DNA of 64,000 nucleotides from Chloroflexota bacterium (GCA_003158675.1 PMKN01000089.1:77932-141931); one strand, 5' to 3'. Positions 11,368 through 31,372 are shown, counted from the stretch's first letter. Translations and numbers: made by a program. Notes: generated from the sequence alone by a model not told the origin.

Positions 11368-11380
11368 CGCCGCGAGTCTA

Positions 11381-12559
11381 TCAACCGCGCCGGGCGGAGA
11401 GCCGCCGGTACAGCGATTCGACGTTGGCAAGGCTCCTGGCCTGATCCGCCCGCGCCTCGACGATGGCGCGCGCCCGGCGGCCGACCTCGGCGCGCTCCTC
11501 CGGCGATCGGTTGAGAGCGCGAGCAAGCGCTGCGGCGGTGGCGTCCACGTCGTCGATCGGCACCAGTGCGGCAGGGTCGAGGTCCCACAGCCACTCGCGC
11601 ACGCTCGGCAGGTCGCCGGCGACGATCTGCCTCTCGCAGGCCATCGACTCGAGAATCGTCACGGCGGTCGAGTCCGACGCCGGGATCGAGACAACGACGT
11701 CGGCCAGCCGGTAGAAATCGACCATCTCCGAATGCGCGATCTCGGGCACGATCACCACCCGGTCCGCGATCCCCAGCGCCTCGACCCGCCCCTGAACCGC
11801 AGCCAGTTCGTCCGCCTGCGCGCGGTGGCGGGAGAGGACCACGGCCACATCCGGCGGCAGCTTTGCGACCGCCTCCACGACTATCTGATGACGGTATAGC
11901 GGCGTGATGTTGCGGGGCGAGAAGACGACTCGGCGTCCCTGCAGACCGAGGCTGGCACGCAGCTCCGCCGGCCCGGGTCCTGGCGTGAAGCGCGTGAGAT
12001 CCACCCCGAACTGGATCATCTCAGTCCGCTCCGGCCGGGCCCCGACCGCCAGCGCGGCCCGCAAGAGAGCGTCGGAGTTCACCATCACCATGTCGGCGGC
12101 CCTCAGGGTGACCCGCGCCACCAGCGCGGCGAGCCGCGACGTGCGTGGCGTGATGAACACGTCGGAGCCCCACAGCGTGGTCACGTAGGGATGAAAGCCC
12201 GACATCCAGGCATGGTAGCCGTGGACCGTCAGGTAGTGAGCGTTCAGCACGTCCGGCCGGACCCTGGCGAGGACCTGGCGCAGAGAACGCCGCGCCATCA
12301 ACACCCCGAGCGGTCGGAAGCGGCGGCTGGTGAAGGGCGCGAAACGCTCGATCGCGATTGCCTCGGGCAGGCCCGGCTCGATCTGCTTCCCGTCCGCGAC
12401 CAGCAGCGTCACGCAGTCCCCGCGCTCGGCCATGAACGTCACCCAGCGCCGGAAGTGGATGCTGTTGGGATCGCCGAGATAGGCGATGCGCAGCGGTTCG
12501 GGCGGCGCCGGCATCTCCGGCTGAGCCTCAGCCCGGGGCCTCGTCGGTAGGGGCGACAT
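11381..12559 (-). CDS. glycosyltransferase family 4
   Basis: GT-B fold; C-terminal E-x7-E-like region (VVSIPASDSTAVTILESMACERQIVAGDLPSVREW). Start assigned to the internal ATG (MSPLPTRP...). Confidence 0.7.
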   Translation of the reverse strand: MSPLPTRPRAEAQPEMPAPPEPLRIAYLGDPNSIHFRRWVTFMAERGDCVTLLVADGKQIEPGLPEAIAIERFAPFTSRRFRPLGVLMARRSLRQVLARVRPDVLNAHYLTVHGYHAWMSGFHPYVTTLWGSDVFITPRTSRLAALVARVTLRAADMVMVNSDALLRAALAVGARPERTEMIQFGVDLTRFTPGPGPAELRASLGLQGRRVVFSPRNITPLYRHQIVVEAVAKLPPDVAVVLSRHRAQADELAAVQGRVEALGIADRVVIVPEIAHSEMVDFYRLADVVVSIPASDSTAVTILESMACERQIVAGDLPSVREWLWDLDPAALVPIDDVDATAAALARALNRSPEERAEVGRRARAIVEARADQARSLANVESLYRRLSARRG

Positions 12560-12684
12560 CGCGGGCGATTGTAGCCGACGCCGATGACCTCCGCGGGCCC
12601 GCACAAGCCCAGCGCGACACCGTAGACTCCACCAGGACCCGGATCGAGCCCACGGCGGGCGGCGGGCGGCGCAGGAGAGGCTCC

Positions 12685-13638
12685 TTGACCATCGCGAACG
12701 ATTCGATAGTCGTCGTCACCGGCGGCTGCGGCTTCATCGGCAGCCACCTGGTTCGACATCTTGTCGCCGATGGGCGTCCGGTGAGAGTTCTCGACGACCT
12801 GTCCAGTGGCGACGTGTCGCGCTTGCCGGCGGGAGTGGAGTTCCGTCAAGGCGACGTCGCCGATCCCGGTTTCATCCGGCCCGGAGTTGCCGGCGCCGCG
12901 GTCGTGTATCACCTGGCCGCAATCGCCTCGGTCGCGCAGTCGAACGATCGCTGGCTGACCAGCCACGTCACCAACAGCTGCGGAGCGGTGGCGGTCATGG
13001 AAGCGGTCCGGGACAAGGCACCAGAGGCCGGCTTCGTCTACGCCTCCTCGGCCGCCGTCTACGGCGATCTGCCACTGGAGCCGGGCCAGAGGATCGCGGA
13101 GTCCGCGCCCATCCGGCCGCTCGGGCCATACGGCGTGGACAAGCTGAACGTGGAGCTCCACGCGGGCGTCGCGGGGCCGCTGTTTGGGCTGCGGTCGTTC
13201 GGGCTGCGTTTCTTCAACGTATTCGGTCCCGGGCAGGATCCCGACTCGCAATACTCCGGGGTGATCAGCCGCTTCGTAGCCCTGGCCCGCTCGGGCGGTC
13301 CGATCACGATCTTCGGCGACGGAGAGCAGACCCGCGACTTTGTCCACGTCGACGACGTCGTCAGGGCGCTGCTTCTCGCGGAGCGCTCGGCGGGCGTTGC
13401 GGCACCCGTGGCCAACGTCTGCACGGGGCTGCCCACGTCCGTCAACCAGCTTGCTTCCGCAATCGCGGATCGGTTCGCTCCCGCGCCTGCCATCGTCCAT
13501 ACCGAGGCCCGGCGCGGCGAAATCAGGCGCTCGCTGGGCGATCCGTCGCTGGCCGGCCGATTGCTCGGCTGGGAACCGGCCGTGACGTTGAACGCGGGGC
13601 TCCGCGCCGTGATCGCCTCCGAAGCCGCGGAAGCCTAG
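12685..13638 (+). CDS. NAD-dependent sugar epimerase/dehydratase (SDR family, GalE/WbpP-like)
   Basis: TTG start after GGAGAGG. Rossmann motif VVVTGGCGFIGSHLVRHL and catalytic Y-x3-K (PYGVDKL). Confidence 0.8.
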   Translation: MTIANDSIVVVTGGCGFIGSHLVRHLVADGRPVRVLDDLSSGDVSRLPAGVEFRQGDVADPGFIRPGVAGAAVVYHLAAIASVAQSNDRWLTSHVTNSCGAVAVMEAVRDKAPEAGFVYASSAAVYGDLPLEPGQRIAESAPIRPLGPYGVDKLNVELHAGVAGPLFGLRSFGLRFFNVFGPGQDPDSQYSGVISRFVALARSGGPITIFGDGEQTRDFVHVDDVVRALLLAERSAGVAAPVANVCTGLPTSVNQLASAIADRFAPAPAIVHTEARRGEIRRSLGDPSLAGRLLGWEPAVTLNAGLRAVIASEAAEA

Positions 13639-14609
13639 CTCGGGGCGAGGTCGCGGGCGAGGTCGCGGGCGATTTCGGCGATCGTCTCCTCCAGCGGCGT
13701 CGTGGGCACGAAGCCGATCAGGCTCCGCAGCAGACTCACGTCCGGCACGCGACGGCGCATATCCTCGAAGCCGGCGCCGTACGCCGCCTGGTAGTCCACG
13801 AGCTGCACAGGCGACTTCGAGCCGACGATCCTGCATACCAGTGCGGCCAGATCCGAGATTGAGGTCTCGCGCGGATTACCGACGTTGACCACCTCGCCAA
13901 CCGCGGCCGGCGTGGCGGCCAGAGCCATCATCGCTGCGACGACATCGTGGACGTTGGCGAAGCAGCGCAGCTGGCTGCCGTCGCCGAATACGGTGAGTGG
14001 CTGGCCTTCGAGGGCCTGGCGGACGAACCGCGGAACCACCATGCCGTAGGCGCCTGTCTGTCGCGGACCGGTCGTGTTGAAGAGTCGCACGATCGTCACC
14101 GGCAGCCCCGACTCCTGACACTGAGCGAGCGCCAGGAACTCGTCGGTGGCCTTTGAGACCGCGTACAGCCAGCGGTGGACCTTCGTGGCTCCGTAGATCG
14201 TGTCGTCGGACTCTTTCAGGGCATCGGAGGCGTTCTTGCCGTAGACCTCGCTGGTGGACGTGAAGAGGGTCCGGATGCCCCGTGCGGCGGCCAGCTCGAA
14301 GACGGCCGAGGAGGCGTCGAGGTTCGTCCGGATAGACGCGAGAGGATGCGCCAGGATGCGGAAGACGCCCACCGCCGCAGCCAGGTGATAGACGAGCTCA
14401 ACGCCTTCGAAAGCCGGGTAGAGGACGGCAGGGTCCTCTGCGAGGCCCTGGCAGAACCGGACCCGACCCGCCTGGACATGAGCCTCGATGTTGTCCAGTC
14501 GCCCGGTCGAGAGGTCGTCGACGACCACCACGTCGTCGCCCCGAGCCACGTGGGCATCGACCAGATGCGAGCCGACGAAGCCCGCCCCGCCGGTGACCAG
14601 AACCCTCAT
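13635..14609 (-). CDS. NAD-dependent sugar epimerase/dehydratase (SDR family, UXS/RmlB-like)
   Basis: MRVLVTGGAGFVGSHLVDAHV...; catalytic YAVSKATDE. The start overlaps the upstream gene's stop (14606-14609). Confidence 0.8.
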   Translation of the reverse strand: MRVLVTGGAGFVGSHLVDAHVARGDDVVVVDDLSTGRLDNIEAHVQAGRVRFCQGLAEDPAVLYPAFEGVELVYHLAAAVGVFRILAHPLASIRTNLDASSAVFELAAARGIRTLFTSTSEVYGKNASDALKESDDTIYGATKVHRWLYAVSKATDEFLALAQCQESGLPVTIVRLFNTTGPRQTGAYGMVVPRFVRQALEGQPLTVFGDGSQLRCFANVHDVVAAMMALAATPAAVGEVVNVGNPRETSISDLAALVCRIVGSKSPVQLVDYQAAYGAGFEDMRRRVPDVSLLRSLIGFVPTTPLEETIAEIARDLARDLAPS

Positions 14610-15694
14610 CGACGGCTGCGCGAATCGGCGGCAACCGCGGCCGTCGCCAACGGCAAAGCCGTGGTCGCGACCGGGGTCTCGAACGGAATCCGGAGAGCGA
14701 CGATCGTCTCCAGTCCGAGCACGACCACCCCGGCGACGACAACCGCCACGAGTTCGACGAGGGGTGCCGGAGCGAACCAGGCCAGCAGGATCGCCAGACC
14801 GCCGCAGGCGCCGCTCGCGAGTCCGACGACCACGAGCATCTCCGACGGCTGAAGACCGGCCCGGACCAGTCGATGAGAGGTGTGGTCGGTTCCGCCGGTG
14901 AAGGGCGAGACCCCCCGCCGGATGCGCGTGACGGAGACCATAGCCACGTCCCCGAACTGGACAAACGCGGCCAGTGGAACGGCCAGGGCGGCAGCGGTCG
15001 CGTGCTGACTCCCGTGAATCTCCGCGTCATGGATGAGCAGCACGCCGGCCCCGGCCAGCGCGAAGCCGAGCATGAGGCTGCCCGCGTCGCCCATGAAGAC
15101 CCGGGCCGGCGGGCGGTTGTGGACGAGGAAGCCGAGGCATGCGCCGCCGACGACCAGACCGAGGCCGATCTCGTTGCCCTTCATGCCCGCCACGATCGCT
15201 GTCAATGCGATCGTTAGTGCAGTCTCCGCGGACAGCGAACTGGCCAACCCATCGGAGTTGTCGACCAGATTCGTGGCGTTGGTCATCACCGGAATGGCGA
15301 TGGCGCCGGCCAGACCGACCGCCACCCTGGGCAACGTGTCGAGATCGTCGAAGACGACCACCAGGAAGCCGGCGCCGAGCAGCGCCTCGGCGATCAGGCG
15401 GTAGCGCGGATGCACATCCCAGAGGTCATCCATGAGACCGATGGCCGTCAGGCCGACCAGGCCGGCAAACCAGGCATAGAGAGTGGTCCCTTCGTCCAGG
15501 GCCATCCAGGCGACAGCCCCGACGGCGATTGCCACCGCCAGCCCGCCCAGGATGGGCACGACCTGGCGAGACCAGCGATCGGCTCTTGGGTGAACTACGG
15601 CACCGAAGCGAAAGGCAAGTCGGTTGGTCAGGGGAACCATCAGCACCGCCACGGCGAAGGCGGCCATTCCGAGGGCCAGCGGACCAGAGATCAC
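14606..15694 (-). CDS. polyprenyl-phosphate N-acetylhexosamine-1-phosphate transferase (WecA/MraY family)
   Basis: GTG 15694, 7 nt after AAGGTG. Eleven-TM protein with the MraY/WecA signature (VMTNATNLVDNSDGLAS), DD motifs and a cytoplasmic-loop HHH-like region (VFMGDAGSLMLGF). Confidence 0.8.
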   Translation of the reverse strand: MISGPLALGMAAFAVAVLMVPLTNRLAFRFGAVVHPRADRWSRQVVPILGGLAVAIAVGAVAWMALDEGTTLYAWFAGLVGLTAIGLMDDLWDVHPRYRLIAEALLGAGFLVVVFDDLDTLPRVAVGLAGAIAIPVMTNATNLVDNSDGLASSLSAETALTIALTAIVAGMKGNEIGLGLVVGGACLGFLVHNRPPARVFMGDAGSLMLGFALAGAGVLLIHDAEIHGSQHATAAALAVPLAAFVQFGDVAMVSVTRIRRGVSPFTGGTDHTSHRLVRAGLQPSEMLVVVGLASGACGGLAILLAWFAPAPLVELVAVVVAGVVVLGLETIVALRIPFETPVATTALPLATAAVAADSRSRR

Positions 15695-16113
15695 TAATTC
15701 ACACCTTGCTCTGCCGGGACCTGACGATTTCGGCGGGCACGACTGCCACCTCGACGGCCGCAGCAGGCTGGGACGACCCGAGACCGGCGGTTGGGTGCCT
15801 GGAGGAGGCGGCGGCGATCGCCGTGCAAAGCCCCGCGAAGCCGGGTCCCAGGAAGGAGACCCGCCTGGATGGAGCGGGGCTGACGGCCCTCCGCTCGATC
15901 TCAGCGTCGAACAACGTAACCTCGACAAGCCCCCTCTGTGGCGCGGAGCCGCTTAGACCGCGTGCCCGAGCGGATGACCGCATTTTCCGGTGGCGACTCG
16001 CGGAGTCAGATCGAGTATCCCACACTGGCCCCGGTCTCGTTTCGAGTCCGGCGCCTATCGCACGGCTGTCATTCGACTGCGGCGGGCGGGGGACGAGCGG
16101 CGAGTCGAACGGC

Positions 16114-17634
16114 TCAGGGTACCGCCGTGCCCGGGGCAACTGTGGGCGGCGGCGCGGCCGTTGTGGGCTTTGGCGTCGCCACGGGGGCCGGCGCCGGAGC
16201 CGGACACGTGTCCGCTTGCTTCAGGCCGGAATAGCGGCTGTCGTCGGCGAACAGCTGCACCGACAGCGCGGCGATCTTGTCGAGGCGGAGGCAACTCGTC
16301 GCGACACCGTAGGCCCACCCTATGCCGGTGTCTCCGTAGTCGGGCGGCTGCAGAACGACCTGGGTGATGTTCGAGGAGGGGATGCCGCCTGCAAGAGCGA
16401 CCATGTCGGCCACCTTGCCAGCCGGGAAGTTGGTCCTCACCGCGGACCCGAGCGTCTGCATCAGCGTCGGCAGCTGAGCCAGCATGCTGGGGTTGGCCAT
16501 CTTGTGCCCCAGCGCGACCATCACCTCCTGCTGCCTGGACTCTCTCCGATAGTCGCTGTTGTTGTAGCCGTGCCGGGATCGCACATAGGCCAGCGCATGG
16601 ATGCCATCCAGGTGGTGCGGCCCGGCCGAGAGGTAGAAGCCAAGGTTCTTGCCGTTGAGCCAGTCGTAACTGGGGTCGTTTATGTCGCTGGGGTTGTTGA
16701 TATCGATGCCGCCAACGAGGTCGATCATCTTCATGAAACTGGCCAGATCCATCGCCGCGTAGTAGTCGATCGGGATGCCCACCAGATAGCCGATCTCTCT
16801 GACGAAGGTCGTCATCGCGTCGTCCGGGGACTTGATCCAGCCATGCTGCACGTACGAAACGAGGGCGTTGATGCGCGTAGCCGGCCCGACGGTTCCACCG
16901 AAATACAGCGGGTATGCGGCGCTGTCGCGCGGAACGCTCACCATGGCCACTTGGTTCGTCCGTGTATCGAGGCTGATGACCATGATCGAGTCGTACAGAC
17001 GCTCGCCGCGGCCGACGTACGAATCCACTCCTGTGAGCAAGATCGTCATCCTGTCTGGAAGCGCCTTCGGCGTCGGGGTCGGTTCGAAGCTCGCCGGCGG
17101 CGGGGAGCCCGCCTCGAAGACGTCCGGGGGCGGTGTCTCGCCTGGGTCGGGCGATTCCGGAGGAGCCGGGTTGTCCTGGACGAACACCTGGGTGAACGTG
17201 GAGTAGTCCATGTAGGCCACGGCCCCGCCCACGCCATGGGTCGCCACGATCACGGCGATCAGGACCGCCAGGACTGCCCGCCCGTTGCGCCGGGCTTTGG
17301 CGGATCGGTCTGAATCACGGCCGGTAGTCACGTAGGCGTGGGCCACAGCGGCGATCCGCAGCGCTCCCACGGCAACGATGATCAACAGAGCGGCCATCGC
17401 GAAAGCGGGATCCACGAAACGCGCCACGAGAACGGCGAGCCCCTGCCTGGCCTGATACACAACGATCAGGAGGACGACGATTGCGGGCACCGCGAAGGCC
17501 GCCGCTTGGCGCCGCCGGCCGGCATATAGCTGCCCGAGGCCAGGCCAAAGGAAGGAAAGCAGGGCCGCCAACCACGGCAGATCCCGTCGTCGGCCCCCGC
17601 TAGGCGTTTCGGAAGAATCCCTCTTGGTCTCCAA
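16114..17634 (-). CDS. LytR-CpsA-Psr (LCP) family glycopolymer-to-peptidoglycan ligase, copy 1
   Basis: N-terminal TM anchor plus LCP catalytic domain (TILLTGVDSYVG...DSIMVISLD...VSVPRDSAAYPL...AYVRSRHGYNNSDYRRESRQQEV). TTG start (LETKRDSS) chosen by homology to copy 2 (METKQTAAKS). Confidence 0.8.
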   Translation of the reverse strand: METKRDSSETPSGGRRRDLPWLAALLSFLWPGLGQLYAGRRRQAAAFAVPAIVVLLIVVYQARQGLAVLVARFVDPAFAMAALLIIVAVGALRIAAVAHAYVTTGRDSDRSAKARRNGRAVLAVLIAVIVATHGVGGAVAYMDYSTFTQVFVQDNPAPPESPDPGETPPPDVFEAGSPPPASFEPTPTPKALPDRMTILLTGVDSYVGRGERLYDSIMVISLDTRTNQVAMVSVPRDSAAYPLYFGGTVGPATRINALVSYVQHGWIKSPDDAMTTFVREIGYLVGIPIDYYAAMDLASFMKMIDLVGGIDINNPSDINDPSYDWLNGKNLGFYLSAGPHHLDGIHALAYVRSRHGYNNSDYRRESRQQEVMVALGHKMANPSMLAQLPTLMQTLGSAVRTNFPAGKVADMVALAGGIPSSNITQVVLQPPDYGDTGIGWAYGVATSCLRLDKIAALSVQLFADDSRYSGLKQADTCPAPAPAPVATPKPTTAAPPPTVAPGTAVP

Positions 17635-17791
17635 AGCGGAGGGACTGTACCACAACCTAGATCCAGGTCGCGGCGGGCCGCCTGCAGGCTTAATTTGGAC
17701 GTTTCGCTTACTTGCGCGACGGGGTACAATTTGCGGTCAGTGCCAGGCGTCTGGAGGGCGCCGGCAGGGGAGGAGACGCAGGGGCTCGCGC
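17635..17791 (+). promoter_or_regulatory. divergent intergenic region between LCP-1 and PGT-1; candidate -10 TACAAT (17725-17730) for the + strand gene
   Basis: 157-bp divergent gap. TACAAT lies 62 bp upstream of ATG 17792; a GGGGAGGAG RBS sits at 17767-17775. Confidence 0.25.
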
Positions 17792-19207
17792 ATGATACGT
17801 CGCTATGCCGCCCTGTTCCATGCTGTCTTGATGGCCGCGGACGCGCTCGTCGCGCTTGCCGTCGTCGTGGCTGCGGCCAGCTTCCGGTTCGGGCCGGCTT
17901 CGGAGTGGAGTTCCGCCCTGGATTCGTCTCTGCCAGATCCCCGCTTCGCCGTGGGCGTCTTCATCGCGACATGGATCGGGCTGCTGTGGATGCGAGGCCT
18001 GTACAGGGGCCGGTCGCACTGGACGATGCGGGGCGAACTGCGCGACGTCATCGGCGCCGGCCTGATGCTGCTGATGGCCACGCTGAGCGCGCTCTTCCTC
18101 TTCAAGCTGCCGGACGTCAGCCGCCTTCTCTTGGTCGTGATCTTCCCGGCGCTGGTCGCGGCCGCGTTTGCCCTGAGAGTGATCATGCGGCTGGTTCTGA
18201 TCTACCTGCGCAACAACGGTCGGAACGCACGCTACATGCTGGTCGTCGGCGCCAACGCGCGCGCGAAGGCCTTCGCCAACACAGTGGAAAGCCATCCCGA
18301 ACTCGGCCTGGTGGTGATCGGGCACCTCAAGGCCGGCCCGACGGACAACGGCGTGTACCTGCGCCGGCCCCTGCTCGGCTCGATCGACGACCTCGAGACC
18401 GTCCTCCACGGCCAGATCGTGGACGAGGTCGCCATATGTCTGCCCTTCGCCATGGAGGACCTCATCGAGCAAGCCGCTCTCCTGTGCCAGCAGGAAGGCA
18501 AGGTAGTGAGGATTCCGGCCGCTCCGGTGGAGCGGATCCTGTCGCTCGGTCACCTCGAGAGCATCGACGGGATGGGCGTCTACTCGCTGGCCAACGGGCC
18601 AGATCGCGCCGCCGGCCTGCTCGCCAAGCGTCTTGTGGACCTTATCGCAGCGGCGGTTCTGATGCTGGTTCTGGCGCCCGTGATGGCACTGCTTGCTCTG
18701 CTGATCAGGTTCGATTCCAGCGGGCCGATCTTGTTCCGCCAGGAGCGCGTCGGCCTGCACGGTCGGCCGTTCTACCTGGTCAAGTTCCGCAGCATGTGTC
18801 GCGGCGCCGAGGACCAGCTGGAGGACCTGAAGGCGCACAACGTGATCCAGGGCCACGCCTTCAAGCTTGAGTTCGACCCTCGGGTCACGCGTATGGGCCG
18901 GTTCCTGCGCCGGACATCGCTCGACGAGTTGCCTCAGCTGTGGAACGTGCTGAGCGGGCAGATGAGCCTTGTGGGACCTCGGCCGCCGCTGCCGAGCGAG
19001 GTCGCCCGGTACGACGTCTGGCACCGCCGCCGGCTCTCGATGAAGCCAGGGATGACCGGCTTGTGGCAGATCGGCGCGCGCCGATGCCCGGAATTCGACC
19101 GCTGGGTCGAAAAGGATCTCGAGTACATCGACAACTGGTCGCTCTGGCTCGACCTCAAGATCATGGCCCGCACGGTGCCGGCGATGCTGGCCGCCGAAGG
19201 CCGATAG
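17792..19207 (+). CDS. polyprenyl glycosylphosphotransferase (WbaP/CpsE/WcaJ bacterial sugar transferase family), copy 1
   Basis: ATG 17792 (MIRRYAALF). N-terminal TM region and C-terminal sugar-transferase catalytic domain (PRPPLPSEVARYDVWHRRRLSMKPGMTGLWQIGARR...DLEYIDNWSLWLDLKI). Confidence 0.85.
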   Translation: MIRRYAALFHAVLMAADALVALAVVVAAASFRFGPASEWSSALDSSLPDPRFAVGVFIATWIGLLWMRGLYRGRSHWTMRGELRDVIGAGLMLLMATLSALFLFKLPDVSRLLLVVIFPALVAAAFALRVIMRLVLIYLRNNGRNARYMLVVGANARAKAFANTVESHPELGLVVIGHLKAGPTDNGVYLRRPLLGSIDDLETVLHGQIVDEVAICLPFAMEDLIEQAALLCQQEGKVVRIPAAPVERILSLGHLESIDGMGVYSLANGPDRAAGLLAKRLVDLIAAAVLMLVLAPVMALLALLIRFDSSGPILFRQERVGLHGRPFYLVKFRSMCRGAEDQLEDLKAHNVIQGHAFKLEFDPRVTRMGRFLRRTSLDELPQLWNVLSGQMSLVGPRPPLPSEVARYDVWHRRRLSMKPGMTGLWQIGARRCPEFDRWVEKDLEYIDNWSLWLDLKIMARTVPAMLAAEGR

Positions 19208-19213
19208 CGCTAC

Positions 19214-20617
19214 CTACGGACAGGTGTTGGCGGGCGCGGGCTTGCCGAACCAAGTGCTGTCGCTGCCGAACCACTGCACCGACAGGGCTGCGACCTTGGC
19301 ATTGATGAGACAGGTCGTCGAGGCCGAGTTCACGTTGTTCACATTGGTGAGCGTGTACGGCGGCCCGAGCACCACCTGCTTGAAGTTGCCGCTCGGGACG
19401 GCCTGGCCCTTCGTCACGAAGTCGGCCAGCTGATCGGCCGGGAAGTTCGTGGCCACACTCGATCCGACCGTCGAAATGAGATCCGGCAAGGCCAGGATCT
19501 GGCTCGGCTGAGCCATCTTGTGCAGGAGATCGACCAGGACCTGTTGCTGCCGCGAGGCTCTGGCCCAGTCGCTGTTTTCGGCGCCGTGGCGAGACCTCAC
19601 GTAGGCGAGGGCGTGAATGCCGTCCAGGTGCGCGGGTCCTGCGGGCAGGTAGAAGCCCAAGGGCTTGCCGTTCATCCAGTCGTACACGCCGTCGTTGATC
19701 ACGCTGGGGTTGACAACGTCTATGCCCCCGACCTTGTCGATCATCTTCACGAATCCGCCCAGATCCATGACCGCGTAGTAGTTGATGGGGAGGCCGACCA
19801 GGTAACCGATCTCTTTGACGAGCGTCATGTACGGGCTGTCGGGCGACTTGATCCAGCCGTTCCGAACGTAGGTCGGCACGGCGTTGATCCTGGTCGTGAC
19901 GGGGACCTGGCCGCCGAAATAGAGCGGGAAGCTGGCGCTATCGCGCGGCACGCTGACCATCTGCACCGAATTTGTCTTGGGGTCGTAGCTGACGACCATG
20001 ATCGAATCGTAGAGATGCTCGCTTCGGGTCGGATCGGAATCCACTCCGGTGAACAGGATGGTGACGCGGCTGCCAGGCGGCGGGGGCGTTGCCGGAATCA
20101 CCTCGGCAGACGGATACGGCGTCTGACCGGGAGCCAGGCTGGCGGTCGAGCCGGCGCCCGAATCGTCGATGAGCGAGCTGTTTGGATTGAACACCTGTGC
20201 ACCGGCGTTGGAGTAGACGAGCAGGTAGTAGCCCGCGGTGGCATGGCTGGCGACGATGACCGCAACCAGCACGGCCGCGGCCAGTCTGTTGAGAGGCTTC
20301 GCAGCCTTACTCGGTTCGCCGCTCAGGTAAGCGTGAGCGACGGCAGCCAGCCGCAGGATGCCCACGAGCACCACGATGACGACGGCCGCCAGGCCGAGGC
20401 TGCGCTCGGCGAACAGGCTGACCGCAAAGGCGACCGGTCCCTGCCAGAGCTGGTAGACCACGACCAGCGTGACCAGTACGGCGGGCAGCGCAAGAATCGC
20501 CGCGGCGCGGCGCTTTCCGAGGTACAACTGGCCCAATCCGGGCCACACGAAAGAGAGCAGAGCGGCCAGTGTCGGCGACCGCATCCGGCTTTTCGCGGCG
20601 GTTTGTTTCGTTTCCAA
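19214..20617 (-). CDS. LytR-CpsA-Psr (LCP) family protein, copy 2
   Basis: Paralog of 16114-17634, e.g. SPDSPYMTLVKEIGYLVGLPINYYAVMDL versus SPDDAMTTFVREIGYLVGIPIDYYAAMDL. TTG start. Confidence 0.8.
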   Translation of the reverse strand: METKQTAAKSRMRSPTLAALLSFVWPGLGQLYLGKRRAAAILALPAVLVTLVVVYQLWQGPVAFAVSLFAERSLGLAAVVIVVLVGILRLAAVAHAYLSGEPSKAAKPLNRLAAAVLVAVIVASHATAGYYLLVYSNAGAQVFNPNSSLIDDSGAGSTASLAPGQTPYPSAEVIPATPPPPGSRVTILFTGVDSDPTRSEHLYDSIMVVSYDPKTNSVQMVSVPRDSASFPLYFGGQVPVTTRINAVPTYVRNGWIKSPDSPYMTLVKEIGYLVGLPINYYAVMDLGGFVKMIDKVGGIDVVNPSVINDGVYDWMNGKPLGFYLPAGPAHLDGIHALAYVRSRHGAENSDWARASRQQQVLVDLLHKMAQPSQILALPDLISTVGSSVATNFPADQLADFVTKGQAVPSGNFKQVVLGPPYTLTNVNNVNSASTTCLINAKVAALSVQWFGSDSTWFGKPAPANTCP

Positions 20618-20801
20618 ATCCCCAAGACCCTAGCACATCTTCGGCTCGGACCCCTTCTCCGAGCTGGAGGGCGTGGTTAGAATTGCTCGCGACGCCCGGC
20701 GGGCAATGCCTCGTTGAGCGTTATGCTGTGCTACAGAACGATCAAGCGACGGCGGGTTCGACGCCACGGAGCTGCCCGCGAGCAACTTGGAGGCGGGGGA
20801 A

Positions 20802-22214
20802 ATGATTCGACGTCACGCCCTCGCGTTTCGCACCACGCTGATGCTGGCAGACGCGAGCCTGGCCATTGGTCTGGCTTACCTGCTTTCGGTCCTGCGGTTT
20901 GGCCGCCACGGGGCGCTTCCAGCGCTGGACGCCTCCTTGCCAGACATGCGAGCAGTGGTCCTGTTCTTTGCCTGCGCGTGGGTCGCGGCGCTGTGGATGC
21001 ACGGCCTCTACCGCTCGCGTGCGCGATGGACGATCCGCAGCGAGGCTGGTGACATCCTGCGCGCCACCGTGACATTTGCCGTGGCAACGCTGGCCTTCCT
21101 CTACGTCTTCAAGCTCCCGGACGTGAGCCGCTCACTGCTGCTCTTGCTCTTCCCCTCGATGGCGGCGATGGCGCTCGCCACGCGGATCGGCCTGCGACTG
21201 CTGCTCGAGCGAATTCGAGACAGCGGCCACAACACCCGCTTCATGATCGTGATCGGCGTCAACCAGCACGCACAGCAGTTCGCGGATCTCGTCGAGACCC
21301 ACCACGAGCTGGGCATCAAGGTGATCGGTCACGTCAAGGGCTCGGCCAGGGACAAGAGCCAGGCCCTCACCCGGCGACAGCTCGGGACCATGGAGGAACT
21401 GGTGTCGATCCTCCACTCGGAAGTCGTCGACGAGGTGGCAATCTGCCTTCCGTTCTCCGAACAGGAGGCGATCGACGAAACCGCCCGACTGTGCGAAGAA
21501 GAAGGCAAGATCGTCCGGATCCCGGTGGCGGTTCTGGAGAGGACGCTGAACAGCGGGCGGATTGAGCAGATCGACGGCATGCCCGTCCTGTCCCTCGTGA
21601 GCGGGACGGACCGGGTGATCGGTCTGGCCGCCAAGCGCGCTCTCGACATCGCCGCCAGCACCTTCCTGCTCGTCGCCCTGTCGCCGCTGTTTGCGCTGCT
21701 GGCTGTGCTCATCAAGCTGGACTCGCCCGGGAGAGTGTTCTTCCGGCAGGAGAGAATCGGGCTGCACGGGCGGTCGTTCAGCGTGGTCAAGTTCCGCAGC
21801 ATGTGCTTGGACGCAGAAGAACGCCTTGAGGAGTTGCAAGGGCTCAACGCGATCCGCGGTCACGCCTTCAAGATCGAGAGCGACCCCCGCGTGACCCGCA
21901 TTGGACGGTTCTTGCGCCGCACGTCGCTCGATGAATTCCCGCAACTCTGGAATGTGCTGCGTGGCGAAATGAGCCTCGTTGGTCCTCGGCCACCACTGGG
22001 CCGCGAGGTGGCCAAGTACGCCATCTGGCATCGCCGCCGGCTATCCATGAAGCCGGGCATGACCGGCCTCTGGCAAATCGGCGCCCGCCGCCACCCCGAG
22101 TTCGATCGCTGGGTCGAGAAGGACCTCGAGTACATCGACACATGGTCCCTGTGGCTCGACCTCAAGATCATCGCCCGCACCGTCCCGGCCATGTTCAGCG
22201 GCGAAGGCCGCTAG
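20802..22214 (+). CDS. polyprenyl glycosylphosphotransferase (WbaP/CpsE family), copy 2
   Basis: ATG 20802 after GGAGG. Paralog of 17792-19207 with a near-identical catalytic C-terminus (…MSLVGPRPPLGREVAKYAIWHRRRLSMKPGMTGLWQIGARR…). Confidence 0.85.
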   Translation: MIRRHALAFRTTLMLADASLAIGLAYLLSVLRFGRHGALPALDASLPDMRAVVLFFACAWVAALWMHGLYRSRARWTIRSEAGDILRATVTFAVATLAFLYVFKLPDVSRSLLLLLFPSMAAMALATRIGLRLLLERIRDSGHNTRFMIVIGVNQHAQQFADLVETHHELGIKVIGHVKGSARDKSQALTRRQLGTMEELVSILHSEVVDEVAICLPFSEQEAIDETARLCEEEGKIVRIPVAVLERTLNSGRIEQIDGMPVLSLVSGTDRVIGLAAKRALDIAASTFLLVALSPLFALLAVLIKLDSPGRVFFRQERIGLHGRSFSVVKFRSMCLDAEERLEELQGLNAIRGHAFKIESDPRVTRIGRFLRRTSLDEFPQLWNVLRGEMSLVGPRPPLGREVAKYAIWHRRRLSMKPGMTGLWQIGARRHPEFDRWVEKDLEYIDTWSLWLDLKIIARTVPAMFSGEGR

Positions 22215-22278: not shown

Positions 22279-23937
22279 TTGAGACGCGCAGATCCGGGCG
22301 CAAGCCCAATCGTCGCCAAGGTCAGCGACCAGATTGCGGCGCATTGGCTGGAGGCCCTAGGTCTCGCGGCGATCATGCTGGTGGCTGCCTTCGCGCGGTT
22401 CCACGACCTCGAAACTCGCGCGGGCTGGGACTCCGACCAGGGCGCCGAGATGCTGGCGCTCTGGAACGCGCTCCACACCGGCGCGATCCCACAGCTTGGC
22501 CCAATCGCGTCTGCCGGTACTTTCCACCACGGTGCCCTCTACTACGACGTCTTGCTTCCCGGCGCCTGGCTCGGCGGGGGCGATCCCACGTGGGCGCTGG
22601 CGCAGATCGCGGCCGGCGGCCTGTTGGTCGTGCCGATGGTGTGGTGGGTGGCACGGTCGATCGGTGGGCCTGCCGCGGGGCTCGCGGCGGCCGTGCTTGC
22701 GGCCACTTCGGGTGGGCTGGTCGTCTTCGCCACGCTCATCTGGAACCCGACGCTGATCGAGCCCGGCGCGGCCCTGGCCTTGCTTGGGGCGTGGCAAGCC
22801 TGGTCCAGTCGAAACCCGGCATGGCTGCTGGCTGCCGCCGCGGGGACTGCAGTTGCAATGCAGGCCGAGATGGCGGCCGGCGCGATCGTCTTTCCGATGA
22901 GCCTGGTGCTCGTATCACTGCTGTGGCGTGGTCCGGCAGGCCAGCGGCGTCGGATCGCATTCTGGGGAGCTGCGGCCGTGGCGGTGATCGTCGCCACGTA
23001 CGTGCCATTCATCCTGTACGAAGTCGGTCACGACTTCGCGGAGACGCGCGCCATCCTGGCCTTCCTGACGGCTCCCGGCCAGCAGGCGTCGCATAGCCTT
23101 GCATACCGTCTCGCAGTGACCGGGCTACGTTCAGTGGCCTGGCCGCTGACCGGCTGGCCGCGCTGGGCTTCCGACCTTCCCCTGGCCATCGGAGTTGTCG
23201 GAGCCCTTGCCGCGGGCCTCGCATGGCGCCTCGTCGCTACAGTCATGCCGCGCCGTCGGCAAGCCCCCGGAGCTGCGGACGGCGCAGCCGTGGCATCGAC
23301 GACCTCCGCCAGTCCACAGTTGAGGGAGCGAGACGGCACATGGCTCGTTGTCGGCTGCCTTGGGGCCTTGATCCTCGCCCTGGGCCTCGGCATGAGCAAC
23401 ACCTCGGCGATCGTGCCGGAGTTCACCGAGCAGTACCACAGCGTCGCCGACCCGTTTGTCATCGTGGCGGCTGGCCTTGTGCTGGGCTCCGTGTGGCGAC
23501 TGTCGAGCCACGGCAGGCTGGCGGGAGTGCTTGGCCGAGTCGTGTGGGTTGCGGCCCTGGTAGCGGCGGTGCACTACGGGTCCGCGCAGTGGCCGCCCGG
23601 TCCGAATGCCTCGAGTTGGTCCTCCGCCCAGACAGCTGCCAACCGCCTCGAGCGGGATGCCAGCGGGAAGTCGATCGCGCTCGTTGGCCTGCCGAACGAC
23701 AGGAGCACCGATGCCTACGGGTACCCGCTCGTGCTCGACGGCATCGCCATGGTGACGCCCGACCGGGCGTCAGTCCTGGTCGTGTTGTGCGACTCGTCGT
23801 CGTCCGGCAGTTGCGGCGGTCCGGCGGAGGATGCCTGGCTCGCTACCCAATCGAACGCCACGGGCTTCGACCTACTGGATCGCTTCACCGCCGCGCCGGA
23901 TCGGCTGCTGTCCGTGTACGGCAGACGCGCGGGCTGA
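22279..23937 (+). CDS. polytopic membrane protein, probable GT-C-type (ArnT/PMT-like) glycosyltransferase
   Basis: 552 aa with ~11 TM helices. The N-terminal region (FARFHDLETRAGWDSDQGAEMLALWN, first periplasmic loop with D/E) resembles the GT39/GT83 family; the C-terminus is a soluble periplasmic domain. Confidence 0.4.
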   Translation: MRRADPGASPIVAKVSDQIAAHWLEALGLAAIMLVAAFARFHDLETRAGWDSDQGAEMLALWNALHTGAIPQLGPIASAGTFHHGALYYDVLLPGAWLGGGDPTWALAQIAAGGLLVVPMVWWVARSIGGPAAGLAAAVLAATSGGLVVFATLIWNPTLIEPGAALALLGAWQAWSSRNPAWLLAAAAGTAVAMQAEMAAGAIVFPMSLVLVSLLWRGPAGQRRRIAFWGAAAVAVIVATYVPFILYEVGHDFAETRAILAFLTAPGQQASHSLAYRLAVTGLRSVAWPLTGWPRWASDLPLAIGVVGALAAGLAWRLVATVMPRRRQAPGAADGAAVASTTSASPQLRERDGTWLVVGCLGALILALGLGMSNTSAIVPEFTEQYHSVADPFVIVAAGLVLGSVWRLSSHGRLAGVLGRVVWVAALVAAVHYGSAQWPPGPNASSWSSAQTAANRLERDASGKSIALVGLPNDRSTDAYGYPLVLDGIAMVTPDRASVLVVLCDSSSSGSCGGPAEDAWLATQSNATGFDLLDRFTAAPDRLLSVYGRRAG

Positions 23938-24043
23938 GGGACCGGCATCTCCGCTACCATAGCCGACAAATCAGACGGTCCGCACGCGAGTCGAGGTATA
24001 TGAAGCCCAATCGGCGACCATCCGGTCCAGGAGCGCCTCGGAG

Positions 24044-25321
24044 GTGAACCTGGAGTCGACCGGAGTTCCGGCAGCCTCGGCAACGAGCGGCGCAATCCCC
24101 CGCCAGACCTCTGTTCGGACTGCGGCTGAGCCGACTCGGCCCACCGTCGGCGGCGCCGCGGTCAAACTCACCCGGCTGGGCTACCTGGACGCCCTGCGCG
24201 GGTTCGCCGTCCTGGGCGTGATCCTCGTTCATGCTTCGCAGCAGGCGCCGGGCCCGGTCGGGCAGGTCGCCTCCACGCAGCAGTTCCCGGACCTGCCCGG
24301 TGCGGTTGCGACACTTGCGGCCCAGGGCCGCCACGGCGTCCAGCTCTTCTTTGTCGTGAGCGCCTTGACGCTCACGCTGTCCGCCAGGGCGCGGTTCGGT
24401 CGTGAGAGCCACCCGACGCTGGACTTCTTCGTCCGCCGGTTCTTCCGCATCGCTCCGATGTTCTGGCTCGGGACCCTCTTCTACGCCTGGCTCTACGGCT
24501 TTGCGCCCAGATTCTGGGCACCGGAGGGAACGACACCGGTGATGGTGGCGAGCACCTTCGCCTTCCTGCATGGCTTCACGCCCGGAACCATCGATAGCGT
24601 TGTGCCGGGCGGTTGGTCTATCGCCGTCGAGACCACCTTCTACGTGGCCCTGCCCCTGCTGCTGCTTTTACTTACGAGCCTGACACGAGCGCTTTGGGCG
24701 GTGTGCCTGTCGGTTGCGGCGTCGGTCTTGCTCGGGATCGTCGCCACGGGACTGCTCGCCCCGTACTTCCCGGGCGCGGACTCATACCTCGTCCAGAACT
24801 TCACCGTTCTCTGGTTCCCGGCCCAGCTGCCGGTCTTCTGCATCGGCATCGCTCTGGCTTTCCTCGTCGGTCGCCCGGTCGAGGATGCGCGGGCGCGCTC
24901 GGCGCTGGCGGTCCTTGGCGGCCTGGCGGCGATGGTCGCTCTCGCCTTTGGCGCATACACGTATTTGACGCCCGATGTGCTCTACGCCCTGGCCTTCGCG
25001 GCGCTCGTCTGGGGCCTCTCGATCGTCCCCTGGCGAATCCTCGTCAACCCCGTCACGCGATATCTCGGAGCGGTGAGCTTTAGTGCGTATCTCGTCCAGT
25101 TCTGGGTGCTCGATGAAATCCGCCCGTGGATCGTCTCGACCGGCACCAGGGGAACTCTGCGGTTCGGCCTCACCTTTGCCGTCGCCACGGTTCTCACGAT
25201 TGCTGCGGCCAGCGTGACCTACCGGCTCGTGGAGAAGCCTGGGATGGCCCTCGGCAAGAGGGTCGTGGAGCGGATCGAGCGGTCCCGCGCGCCGTCGATC
25301 GCGGCCAAAAGCCCGGCGTAA
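24044..25321 (+). CDS. acyltransferase family 3 (OafA/WecH-like integral membrane O-acyltransferase)
   Basis: GTG start. N-terminus LDALRGFAVLGVILVHA, ten TM helices, and conserved Arg/His motifs typical of Acyl_transf_3. Confidence 0.7.
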   Translation: MNLESTGVPAASATSGAIPRQTSVRTAAEPTRPTVGGAAVKLTRLGYLDALRGFAVLGVILVHASQQAPGPVGQVASTQQFPDLPGAVATLAAQGRHGVQLFFVVSALTLTLSARARFGRESHPTLDFFVRRFFRIAPMFWLGTLFYAWLYGFAPRFWAPEGTTPVMVASTFAFLHGFTPGTIDSVVPGGWSIAVETTFYVALPLLLLLLTSLTRALWAVCLSVAASVLLGIVATGLLAPYFPGADSYLVQNFTVLWFPAQLPVFCIGIALAFLVGRPVEDARARSALAVLGGLAAMVALAFGAYTYLTPDVLYALAFAALVWGLSIVPWRILVNPVTRYLGAVSFSAYLVQFWVLDEIRPWIVSTGTRGTLRFGLTFAVATVLTIAAASVTYRLVEKPGMALGKRVVERIERSRAPSIAAKSPA

Positions 25322-25411
25322 TTCAGCCCGTCCGAATCGAAGGCGCTCCTGCGGTACCATGCTGGAGCGTCTTTAGGACCAACAGGAAGGAGCCGGACCC
25401 TGTCAGCGGTT

Positions 25412-25504
25412 GTGGCTGTCACCGGACGCGAGGGCTTCATCGGGTCCCACCTGGTCGAGGCGCTCGTCCGACGTGGCAATCGGGTCAGGGCGATGGTCCC
25501 GTGA
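25412..25504 (+). pseudogene. remnant of the N-terminus of an NAD-dependent epimerase/dehydratase (Rossmann GxxGxxG only), truncated after ~30 codons
   Basis: Manual translation, in the same frame as the preceding gene: (GTG)AVTGREGFIGSHLVEALVRRGNRVRAMVP*. This is the canonical SDR N-terminus, preceded by GGAAGGAG (25385-25392). Its stop TGA 25502-25504 overlaps GTG 25501 of the next gene. Confidence 0.45.
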
Positions 25505-26250
25505 GCCGACTTGGCCACAAGTGGCTGCTGCTTCGGAGCTTGCCGAAGACAATCAGGTTCAACTTCACCTACCTCCCGCTGGCCGACGCCCTTCGGCTCC
25601 CCGTGCTGGTCTGCCATCGAGTCCATTTCGAGCGCCTTGGCGGCAAGGTCCGGGTCGCACCTCACAGCCGGAGGGGGACAGTCCACATCGGCTTCGGCGA
25701 AGTGGGGATATTCGACCGCGAACGTCGACGGAGCATCTGGCAGGTCGACGGGGAAGTTGTATTCCAGGGCCGAGCCGAGTTGGGCCATGGCACGAAGGTG
25801 TCGGTCGGACCGGGCGGGGTCCTGACGTTCGGAGACGGGTTCGAGATAACCGCCGAGACCGCCATCGTCTGCCGCAAGGAGATCACGTTCGGCAAGGACG
25901 TGTTGATTTCATGGGACGTGCAGGTGATGGACACCGACCTCCATTCCATCGTCGATGCGGACGGCGCGGTTCTCAACCCGGACGGCAGGATCGTCATTGA
26001 CGATCACGTTTGGATCGGTAGCCGAGTACTCGTGCTGAAGGGCGTCCACGTCGCCAGGGACTCGGTTGTTGCCGCTGGTTCCATCCTCACCCGCGGGACC
26101 TACGCGGCCAACGCTATCGTCGCCGGGTCTCCTGCCCGAGAGATCCGACACGGGATCTCGTGGTCCTCAGAGCCTGCGGGGGACGTCGCGAGCGACGAAG
26201 AGGCCGATGGCAAACAAAGCCGTCGAGGTGCACCCGATCTCGCCGGCTAG
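25501..26250 (+). CDS. hexapeptide-repeat (left-handed beta-helix) sugar O-acetyltransferase (WcaF/WbbJ-like)
   Basis: GTG 25501; the track's 25126 start is a rejected upstream extension. Hexapeptide repeats (AIVCRKEITFGKDVLISWDVQVMDTD...IVIDDHVWIGSRVLVLKGVHVARDSVVAAGSIL). Confidence 0.7.
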   Translation: MSRLGHKWLLLRSLPKTIRFNFTYLPLADALRLPVLVCHRVHFERLGGKVRVAPHSRRGTVHIGFGEVGIFDRERRRSIWQVDGEVVFQGRAELGHGTKVSVGPGGVLTFGDGFEITAETAIVCRKEITFGKDVLISWDVQVMDTDLHSIVDADGAVLNPDGRIVIDDHVWIGSRVLVLKGVHVARDSVVAAGSILTRGTYAANAIVAGSPAREIRHGISWSSEPAGDVASDEEADGKQSRRGAPDLAG

Positions 26251-26442
26251 CCTTTGGTCCGCGTCTCGAGACCGCCCAACGATGGGCCGGCCGCTGCATA
26301 ATGCGGACATCAGCAGGATGTTCAGTCGCCGTCATGGCCCGACGAATCCTCCGGGCCACCCAGGAGTTGTCCCACCTTGGACCCACATAGGGTGCGAGGC
26401 GACGGACGGTGCTGCAACCTAACGGAGAGCACGGAGATCAGA

Positions 26443-27312
26443 TTGGCACTCAGCACCGGCCTCGGGCCGACTGCCACCGGGCAGGCCGATCACCAAGAAC
26501 CGACTGTGGTGATCGAAGCCAGCCACGGGTGGCGAGAGCTCGGGCTTTCCGAACTGTGGTCTCACCGAGAGCTCATGTTCTTCTTCGTCTGGCGGGACCT
26601 GAAGGTTCGATACCGCCAGACGGCCTTCGGCGCGGCATGGGCGGTCATGCAACCGGTCCTCCTGATGATCGTGTTCAGCGTCTCGGTGGGCCGCATATCC
26701 GGTGTGGGGCCCAAGAACCTTCCTTATCCCCTGTTTGCGTTCGCGGGCCTGGTGCCGTGGACGCTGTTCGCGTCGAGCCTCACCAGCGCATCCAACAGCC
26801 TGGTCAGCTCAGAGGCCATCATCACGAAGGTCTACTTCCCACGCCTGTTGCTTCCCTTCGCAGCCGTCGGCTCGTTCATCATCGACTTCCTGGTCGCGAT
26901 GGTTGTACTCCTGGTCTTGATGCTGTACTACGGCACCGTGCCAACGATCGCAGTCGTCTGGCTCCCGCTCTTCACGCTCTTCGCCCTCGTCACCGCTTTG
27001 GGGGTTGGCACGTGGCTGGCGGCGATCAACGTGCGCTACCGCGACGTGAAGTACGTTGTGCCATTTCTGGTGCAGACGTGGATGTTCGCCTCGCCGGTCA
27101 TCTACGTGAGCACTTTGATACCCGACAACTGGCGATGGTTGTATGCGTTGAACCCCATGACCGGTGTCCTTGATGGCTTCCGCTGGGCGCTCATCGGGGG
27201 CTCGAGGCCGGACTCACTCATTCTGGTCTCGGCGGCTGCCTCTGTGCTGGTCTTCACTAGCTCCCTGGTCTACTTCAAACACACCGAGCAAACGTTCGCG
27301 GACGTGATCTGA
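26443..27312 (+). CDS. wzm: ABC-2 type polysaccharide export permease (Wzm/TagG/KpsM family)
   Basis: TTG 26443, 5 nt after GGAGA. Six TM helices with the ABC-2 signature (FFFVWRDLKVRYRQTAFGAAWAVMQP). Its stop overlaps the Wzt start (TGATG at 27310-27314). Confidence 0.8.
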   Translation: MALSTGLGPTATGQADHQEPTVVIEASHGWRELGLSELWSHRELMFFFVWRDLKVRYRQTAFGAAWAVMQPVLLMIVFSVSVGRISGVGPKNLPYPLFAFAGLVPWTLFASSLTSASNSLVSSEAIITKVYFPRLLLPFAAVGSFIIDFLVAMVVLLVLMLYYGTVPTIAVVWLPLFTLFALVTALGVGTWLAAINVRYRDVKYVVPFLVQTWMFASPVIYVSTLIPDNWRWLYALNPMTGVLDGFRWALIGGSRPDSLILVSAAASVLVFTSSLVYFKHTEQTFADVI

Positions 27313-28571: not shown

Positions 28572-28595
28572 CTGCCAAGCCGTGGTAGTTCACTT

Positions 28596-30461: not shown

Positions 30462-30546
30462 GCGCTTCCCTGCATCATTGCACCCGGGCATTGGTCCAGC
30501 CCGCACGCGAAGCACCACAGCACTCGCAGGAGTGGACAAACCATCC

Positions 30547-31302: not shown

Positions 31303-31372
31303 CGCTCACCGGTCGGCAGATGCGAATGCCTGAAGGATTGGCCGCTCGGTTCAGCCCACGCGAGGCGCTCCC

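Follow-up and report, generated by a model that had tools for sequence, protein, structure and literature searches.

The region between positions 16,114 and 22,214 of a 64,000-nucleotide stretch of Chloroflexota DNA (GCA_003158675.1 PMKN01000089.1:77932-141931; the whole stretch is referred to here as the window) is likely to be the junction of two, and probably three or more, gene clusters for cell-wall glycopolymers in an uncultured bacterium of the class Limnocylindria. The head of each cluster would be a gene for a LytR-CpsA-Psr (LCP) family ligase lying divergent from a gene for a large phosphoglycosyl transferase (PGT) of WbaP/CpsE architecture, an arrangement that would constitute the standard two-gene unit of the clade. 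Two such units stand side by side in the window, and an earlier note on this DNA had taken them for the product of a tandem segmental duplication; sequence comparison, trees and synteny point instead to the meeting of two clusters of separate history. The closest homologues of the genes come from organisms named as Candidatus Limnocylindrales or Limnocylindria, or from Chloroflexota metagenome-assembled genomes (MAGs) of fen, peat and soil samples. The Limnocylindria lineage has been predicted to be monoderm and to carry genes for peptidoglycan synthesis (bioRxiv 10.1101/2021.08.23.457424), a prediction that fits wall-linked polymers and LCP ligases.

The first unit is made up of LCP1 (16114-17634, minus strand; 506 aa), which begins at a TTG codon ('LETKRD') and has a Pfam-supported LCP domain, an N-terminus with several putative transmembrane (TM) segments and a Pro/Ala/Thr-rich C-terminal tail, and PGT1 (17792-19207, plus strand; 471 aa), which begins 'MIRRYA'. 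The second is made up of LCP2 (19214-20617, minus strand; 467 aa), also a Pfam-supported LCP family ligase with a TTG start ('LETKQT'), and PGT2 (20802-22214, plus strand; 470 aa; 'MIRRHA'). Both PGTs are predicted to be monotopic and combine CoA_binding_3 and Bac_transf domains. On the far side of LCP1 lies a gene for a predicted WecA/TagO-like polytopic polyprenyl-phosphate HexNAc-1-P transferase (14606-15694, minus strand), which has a GTG start ('VISGPLALG') and a Pfam Glycos_transf_4 domain. The four genes of the two units are full-length with their catalytic motifs intact, as judged from the list of open reading frames (ORFs) and from alignments, and ORFs, Pfam and BLASTP together confirmed, at exact coordinates, the earlier description of two adjacent blocks of identical architecture built from full-length paralogues. 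PGT1 and LCP2 are convergent and 6 bp separate their stop codons (19207-19214). The order WecA-LCP1-PGT1-LCP2-PGT2, including the boundary between PGT1 and LCP2, was recovered four times over, at 99-100% identity, from independent assemblies of different projects (L001, L002, L003 and L085; Logan SRR11578828, ENA ERZ28662526, ENA ERZ27254079 and JGI Ga0182019) and is therefore neither chance nor misassembly. As a separate observation, no terminator-like hairpin lies between the convergent ends of PGT1 and LCP2, so that their transcripts would have either to overlap or to terminate within the opposing gene.

As the earlier note had stated, the copies are clearly diverged and are not recent identical repeats. 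LCP1 and LCP2 share 53% identity over 489 columns (BLASTP, E=1e-149), and PGT1 and PGT2 share 58% from end to end (471 columns, one gap, E=0). At the DNA level, identity between the blocks as detected by blastn is 66-70%, is found within coding sequence alone and ends at the coding edges, and the two divergent intergenic gaps cannot be aligned to each other beyond promoter motifs that are family-wide. Alignment of the two blocks, as the earlier note had proposed, thus bore out the relationship of the proteins but not that of the blocks as continuous segments. Synonymous sites between the copies are saturated (proportion of synonymous differences, pS, 0.57-0.61; synonymous substitutions per site, dS, 1.1-1.25) and dating by dS is therefore not feasible. 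More than 120 database clusters match LCP2 at 55-73% identity, and LCP1 is absent from the best 120 matches of LCP2. The PGT2 orthogroup is sharply bounded, with approximately 58 clusters at 67-82% identity, all of them 470 aa in length, and the next matches at 63% or below. Orthologues of PGT1 show 77-87% identity (L041, L048, L146 and L067) and those of LCP1 66-77% (L041, L048, L043, L050 and L061). Homologues from outside the clade are more distant (36-39% for LCP, in L054 and L056, and at most 41% for PGT) than are the paralogues within the window (53-58%). The paralogues do not, therefore, resemble independently acquired members of their families, no closer to each other than to unrelated proteins; the duplications that gave rise to them took place within the lineage, but are old. 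Each Limnocylindria MAG yields three to five LCP matches. The matching start contexts that had been read as a mark of duplication turned out to be family-wide, with TTG-E/D-T found across the LCP family and MIRR[YH]A across the PGT family. Taken together, the comparisons show that LCP1 and LCP2, like PGT1 and PGT2, are old paralogues belonging to different orthologous lineages, and that their history since has been one of shuffling.

Evidence for this shuffling comes from neighbour-joining trees of the two families, which were constructed with outgroups and bipartition bootstraps from 200 replicates. In the PGT tree, PGT1, PGT2 and a third group, PGT3, form clades with 100% bootstrap each, and the PGT1 clade is sister to PGT3 (100%), not to PGT2. 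In the LCP tree, an LCP1 clade (window, L041, L048, L061 and L043) is recovered at 95.5%, and a broad LCP2 clade at 100% holds a subclade in which the window LCP2 groups with the LCPs of L143, L147 and L144 (88.5%). In the loci themselves the two gene families are not paired in a mirrored fashion. PGT1 is partnered by an LCP1-type gene in the window, L041 and L048 and by an LCP2-type gene in L146 and L004, while the partners of PGT3 are genes of the broad LCP2 clade. For PGT2 the partner comes from the LCP2 subclade in four cases (window, L143, L144 and L147), is of LCP1 type in L061 and belongs to a third LCP clade in L058, L064 and L065; in L066 PGT2 stands directly opposite WecA, and in L060 and L145 it occurs without an LCP gene. 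The histories of LCP and PGT therefore conflict at 95-100% bootstrap and their pairings are not mirrored. Independently of these pairings, two tandem co-directional LCP2-type genes stand opposite a single PGT2 orthologue in L143 (4343-7278) and L147 (9953-12777), which shows that tandem duplication of LCP alone does occur in the family.

Glycan loci of Limnocylindria are usually headed by a divergent LCP-PGT pair, which was found in approximately 20 non-redundant loci; the downstream genes differ in nearly every one of them. Adjacency of the two genes is specific to the clade. A metagenome scan with PGT2, made with generic C-terminal peptide patterns, yielded for the most part unrelated PGT loci (31-60% identity). 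Of the loci recovered, only L063-L067 and L085 could be used in the comparison, and the remainder provided a background set for LCP adjacency. Among 74 diverse unrelated loci of this background only one has an LCP match, 6.7 kb off and non-adjacent. The pairing, which had been described as unusual, is thus the common arrangement within the clade, and LCP genes are already known to be usually located at glycopolymer loci such as the Gram-positive cps loci (PMC12220298). A double unit is another matter: when the relatives were surveyed for single versus duplicated modules, as had been suggested, none of the approximately 17 informative loci from other populations carried two.

Synteny gives the two units different contexts. 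The block to the left of WecA (8630-14609; Pfam matches to a MOP/MATE-like membrane protein, a family 4 glycosyltransferase (GT4) and two epimerases) is collinear with WecA-LCP1-PGT1 in L048, L041 and L050. In L048, which has a single module, a MOP-like protein, GTs, two epimerases, WecA, LCP1 and PGT1 are collinear with window 8.8-19.2 kb, and PGT1 is followed by homologues of window 49.9-55.0 kb. In the window this latter block (49917-55120, minus strand) comprises by Pfam a FAD oxidoreductase (DAO), an RmlC-like epimerase, a DUF1972 GT4 and a further epimerase, and its homologues adjoin PGT1 in L048 (64-84% identity) and PGT2 in L060 (68-71%). The window therefore carries approximately 30.7 kb that L048 does not, starting with LCP2 and PGT2, and the single-module loci L048 and L041 differ from it by approximately 27-31 kb, not by one 3-kb unit. 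In L147, which holds the closest relatives of LCP2 and PGT2, PGT2 is followed directly by homologues of window 38.7-44.9 kb, that is of a Wzx-type block (38605-44986; Pfam) made up of GDP-mannose 4,6-dehydratase (86% identity), a Polysacc_synt_3 Wzx-like flippase (67%), an unknown protein (73%) and a GT2 (62%). PGT2 is likewise followed by the dehydratase in L144 and L066. Between PGT2 and these usual downstream genes the window has an ABC-transporter-type glycan cluster (22279-38600; Pfam) that is absent from between PGT2 and the dehydratase homologue in L147, L144 and L066. It encodes a GT-C-like membrane protein, an acyltransferase_3, a hexapeptide transferase, Wzm and Wzt (the latter with a Wzt_C domain), together with a methyltransferase-GT fusion, epimerases, GTs and a DegT aminotransferase. 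Wzm and Wzt lie at 26.3-28.6 kb and the Wzx-like Polysacc_synt_3 protein at 40.4-42.4 kb, and this predicted presence of more than one export route fits the production of two or more glycans. LCP1 and PGT1 are part of a conserved block that also includes WecA, epimerases and a GT, and LCP2 and PGT2 lead, in their closest relatives, a block with GDP-mannose dehydratase, the Wzx-like protein and GT2. In the window, the second unit and approximately 30 kb of glycan genes separate PGT1 from the genes that flank it elsewhere, and the 16 kb of the ABC-transporter cluster (22.3-38.6 kb) separate PGT2 from its usual operon.

Had a 3-kb block been duplicated in tandem recently and in this lineage alone, with rapid divergence and sub-functionalisation thereafter, the matching block architecture and the similar N-termini (TTG-E-T-K and MIRR[YH]A) would be accounted for. 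These N-terminal motifs are, however, common to the whole family, dS is saturated and non-coding similarity is nil. Furthermore, the more than 120 clusters mentioned above are nearer to LCP2 than LCP1 is, approximately 58 are nearer to PGT2 than PGT1 is, and the orthologues of each copy sit in separate single-module loci, which makes such an event very improbable. The earlier proposal of a 3-kb tandem duplication at this site therefore has to be given up, in view of the closer orthologues elsewhere, the conflict between the trees, the unshared non-coding sequence and the difference of approximately 30 kb from single-module loci. The source is of metagenome type, and paralogous repeats can be misjoined in such data, so the possibility was also considered that two similar loci, each from a different genome, had been joined into a chimera. 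Since the PGT1-LCP2 boundary and both modules recur at 99-100% in four independent assemblies, and since paralogues at 66-70% DNA identity are too diverged to confuse an assembler, an artefact of this kind has next to no probability.

More weight attaches to the view that one LCP-PGT unit was duplicated en bloc and in tandem long ago, in an early ancestor of the Limnocylindria, with the tandem kept only here, loss of one unit or recombination between paralogues elsewhere and later insertion of further glycan genes. The two units follow each other in the same orientation with a spacer of 6 bp, which is the expected product of tandem duplication, and this counts against a meeting of separate clusters. 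All LCP and PGT copies are specific to the clade and closer to each other than to outside homologues, the tandem LCP genes of L143 and L147 provide a precedent in the family, and recombination between paralogues could yield some of the swapped pairs, such as the LCP1-type gene facing PGT2 in L061. An old duplication of the whole block would, however, lead one to expect mirrored pairing, whereas PGT1 is sister to PGT3 (100%) and the partners of PGT3 fall in the broad LCP2 clade (100%). None of the approximately 17 informative loci in other lineages retains the double unit, units of the L146 type (an LCP2-type gene facing PGT1) are not derivable from the tandem order by simple deletion, and in the relatives the downstream cluster with which a unit is collinear is not the same for the two units. 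We therefore consider an ancient en-bloc duplication unlikely, although some probability remains for an old event after which other lineages underwent loss and gene conversion. Several features of the analysis also weigh against the meeting of two clusters that is preferred here. The trees are neighbour-joining trees of approximately 30-60 sequences from fragmentary MAGs and stand without reconciliation to a species tree; loci L004-L057 were retrieved by way of the LCP gene, so that pairing frequencies are biased; and the comparison was made without a genus-level relative, so that the difference of approximately 30 kb may be an insertion here or a deletion in L048. In addition, the functions, promoters and near-leaderless start discussed below are all predictions from sequence.

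LCP1 and LCP2 match PF03816 LytR_cpsA_psr at 114.2 and 107.2 bits (cutoff 24.6) and TIGR00350 at 96.4 and 92.2 bits (cutoff 62.3), and fall far under the cutoffs of the TagU, CpsA and LytR equivalog models, so that no specific LCP subtype can be assigned. Both retain the motifs LYDSIMV, VPRDS, YVRSRHG and SRQQ, which were aligned to their equivalents in TagV (6uf3) and Cps2A (2xxp) and which we take, at the level of motifs, to correspond to the published catalytic residues. Three to four hydrophobic segments lie within the first approximately 135 residues of each, along with the invariant motif 'LSF[LV]WPGLGQLY', unlike the single-TM anchor of most characterised LCPs; in Pfam this region gives only sub-threshold matches (DUF5683, DUF6677 and TM2). 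Two invariant Cys residues were observed in the C-terminal region of LCP1 and LCP2. PGT1 and PGT2 match PF02397 Bac_transf at 227.6 and 230.3 bits (cutoff 27) and PF13727 CoA_binding_3 at 61.6 and 64.7 bits (cutoff 25). Alignment of their catalytic regions to WbaP structures reaches E~4e-49, and both keep the Asp-Glu dyad in LDE[LF]PQ and the GPRP motif; the fuller motif reads 'SLDELPQLWNVL..LVGPRPP' in PGT1 and 'SLDEFPQLWNVL..LVGPRPP' in PGT2 when aligned to WbaP chains. Both score below the family cutoffs for WbaP (TIGR03022; 291 and 298 vs 403) and WcaJ (TIGR03023; 338 and 357 vs 410.75), and the sole subfamily model that they pass is the broad EPS_sugtrans model (TIGR03025; 390 and 410 vs 295.55). 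The label 'WbaP-type' used previously is therefore apt as a description of architecture and does not extend to membership of the WbaP family or to sugar specificity. The WecA-like protein matches PF00953 Glycos_transf_4 at 92.2 bits (cutoff 27) and lies below the cutoffs for both WecA (TIGR02380; 82.9 vs 326) and MraY (52 vs 192), so that it belongs to the family but cannot be given a subtype. The earlier count of three initiating enzymes and two LCP ligases is correct by Pfam annotation, the three predicted polyprenyl-phosphate initiators of the window being the WecA-like protein, PGT1 and PGT2.

The intergenic gaps hold conserved elements on both sides. An extended -10-like motif, TGTGGTACAGTC (17643-17654, minus strand), lies 9 nt before the TTG of LCP1 and is a putative near-leaderless promoter, and its counterpart TGTGCTAGGGTC (20626-20637, minus strand), singled out by conservation, lies 9 nt before the TTG of LCP2. 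In the whole 64 kb the pattern TGTGNTASRGTC has just two occurrences, both of them 9 nt ahead of the TTG of an LCP gene, against 0 expected by chance. The arrangement TGnTA[GC]AGT-N9-TTG is present in approximately 28 of 64 related LCP genes (among L004-L147) with a spacing fixed at 9-10 nt, and a longer form of the motif can be written GTGTGnTA[GC]AGTC. GTG replaces the TTG start in two LCP genes (L043 and L061), and third positions after the TTG vary in a codon-like manner. No Shine-Dalgarno sequence was found between the motif and the start. In database gene calls LCP2 begins 11 codons further in, at a non-conserved ATG. Leaderless genes, according to published work, are marked by a TANNNT signal approximately 12 nt before the start (PMC3160421). 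The LCP signal stands at -15, which suggests a leader of approximately 3 nt and hence that LCP mRNA may be near-leaderless and TTG-initiated.

On the PGT side the elements differ between groups, with TACAAT in the PGT1 group, TAGAAT in the PGT2 group and GATACT in the PGT3 group, each followed by a leader and GGAGG; leaders measure 55-125 nt across the groups. PGT1 is preceded by the -10-like TACAAT (17725-17730, plus strand) and a 5' leader of approximately 55 nt with GGAGG, and 'GTACAAT' is conserved in intergenic regions of its group. PGT2 is preceded by the -10-like TAGAAT (20678-20683, plus strand), a site again marked by conservation, and a leader of approximately 115 nt with a GGAGG Shine-Dalgarno sequence at its end. 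TA[GCA]AAT[GT]G is conserved in all ten PGT2-group upstream regions examined, loci without LCP included. Leaders in this group (window, L058, L060, L063, L064, L066, L143-L145 and L147) are 95-130 nt long. The proposed promoters have no -35 element, and it is their conservation that points to them; a generic sigma-70 scan called no promoter, the proposed sites included, and found no more terminators than in shuffled sequence. It was also observed that the PGT2-group leader (window 20684-20801, plus strand) follows a conserved TAGAATGG box and contains conserved stretches such as CACGGACCGA and CTCGCGTCGCCCGG. A structured RNA in this leader was considered and rejected, as RNAalifold of the leader alignment gave a 5-bp hairpin without real covariation. 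A search of 13-24 kb against Rfam returned one sub-threshold chance match (psaA, 20 bits vs a gathering threshold of 50).

These elements suggest how the heads might work. The PGTs and the WecA-like enzyme would prime polyprenyl phosphate, the PGTs by moving a sugar-1-phosphate at the inner face of the membrane; the glycan would be extended by GTs and exported by a Wzx-type or a Wzm/Wzt route; and LCP would take the completed polymer off its lipid pyrophosphate and join it to peptidoglycan, freeing the carrier. An extended -10-type element approximately 9 nt from the TTG would serve LCP, and a promoter before the longer leader would serve PGT. It has been shown that undecaprenyl phosphate (Und-P) is sequestered when late steps are blocked (PMC12826051), and if the first and last steps on the lipid carrier are expressed together from back-to-back promoters, use of the carrier would be balanced and its sequestration limited. 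According to a review, the LCP pocket fits the lipid pyrophosphate and the first sugar only (PMC12220298), which makes co-evolution of LCP and PGT plausible. The frequent partner swapping described above argues against tight LCP-PGT specificity, and argues instead for shared first sugars or promiscuous ligases. A more far-reaching proposal, which we offer tentatively and regard as possible rather than probable, is that the LCP-PGT pair of Limnocylindria is a conserved and exchangeable head cassette for cell-wall glycan loci, with back-to-back promoters, a near-leaderless TTG-initiated LCP mRNA and freely changing LCP and PGT partners, that acts as a recombination anchor for swaps of whole glycan clusters.

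Parallels can be drawn with several known systems. The nearest known arrangement is the head of Gram-positive, Streptococcus pneumoniae-type cps loci (cpsA/wzg ... cpsE/wchA), which likewise combines an LCP and a large Bac_transf PGT conserved at the head of a hypervariable, recombining locus, and the cps LCP attaches polymer linked to undecaprenyl pyrophosphate to peptidoglycan (PMC12220298). The cps genes are, however, co-directional with cpsB-D between them, whereas those of the window are adjacent and divergent, and no CpsBCD-type tyrosine-kinase genes were seen among the window ORFs scanned. The window LCPs also differ in their putative multi-TM N-terminal region, the host belongs to a predicted monoderm lineage of the Chloroflexota and two heads abut. 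With the Firmicutes pathways for wall teichoic acid and rhamnose polysaccharide (TagO/RgpG, a Wzm/Wzt-type ABC exporter and TagTUV/LCP) the parallel is one of gene content alone, the window encoding a WecA/TagO-family initiator, an ABC-2 exporter and LCPs. Polymers of rhamnose type may be indicated by the RmlC and DUF1972-GT4 genes of the window and by RgpF in the related locus L061. The window Wzt differs from these pathways in having a Wzt_C domain, as in Gram-negative O-polysaccharide systems, and the WecA-like protein in falling under the WecA equivalog cutoff. With Salmonella WbaP and E. coli WcaJ the PGTs share an N-terminal TM region, a CoA_binding_3-like domain, the Bac_transf domain and the Asp-Glu dyad, but they lie under both family cutoffs. 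Several LCP paralogues per genome are also found in other monoderms (S. aureus LcpA-C, B. subtilis TagTUV and M. tuberculosis Lcp1), where their roles partly overlap (PMC12220298); many Limnocylindria LCPs differ from these in sharing a divergent promoter region with a PGT and in their conserved TTG and extended -10-like motif.

Other features of the window concern the wider locus. Orthologues of the WecA-like protein (83-87% identity) adjoin LCP or PGT genes in L041, L048, L050, L146 and L066. The 419-bp gap between LCP1 and WecA contains a remnant of approximately 47 codons (15780-15914, minus strand) from the N-terminus, with the Rossmann GxGxxG region, of a UDP-glucose/GDP-mannose dehydrogenase, detected by tblastn with the L146 dehydrogenase as query (53% identity over 47 aa, E=2e-8). 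An intact dehydrogenase gene lies between LCP and WecA in L146 and L041, and the remnant is probably the deletion scar of a rearrangement. An intact paralogue of it is present in the window at 7065-8624. GC content is 0.61-0.66 at 26000-38000, compared with 0.68-0.70 in the left flank (9-15 kb); this dip coincides with the ABC-transporter cluster lacking in relatives and is as expected for exchanged glycan genes. Within that cluster, the methyltransferase-GT4 fusion (28572-30461, plus strand) adjoins the Wzt with its Wzt_C carbohydrate-binding domain (27261-28571, plus strand), a layout that recalls the chain-terminator-coupled ABC export of Gram-negative O-polysaccharides, here in a predicted monoderm. 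An Nramp transporter gene (5596-6990, plus strand) flanks the glycan supercluster both in the window and in L058 (1-228; 81% over the shared part), and the glycan locus may have a conserved place in the chromosome while varying in content. The left end (812-4205, minus strand) encodes a GAF-GGDEF diguanylate cyclase and a PolX-type DNA polymerase that has a PHP domain, both unrelated to the paired units.

The paired heads of this region are real but fairly ordinary, and are not a new kind of system. What appeared to be a neat 3-kb duplication is better seen as the meeting point of two old cluster heads that evolve separately, which corrects the evolutionary account of the region. The comparison gives a first view, at the level of sequence, of the wall-glycan loci of an abundant and uncultured class of predicted monoderm Chloroflexota, in which the loci appear mosaic and hypervariable and built around conserved LCP, PGT and WecA anchors, like the capsule loci of Gram-positive pathogens. 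Partner swapping also raises the testable question of how strictly an LCP ligase recognises the first sugar in its substrate. If the pair is indeed an exchangeable cassette, the ligases would not discriminate between the reducing-end sugars set by the PGTs, and the fusion of cassettes, as here, would let one cell display several wall-linked polymers.

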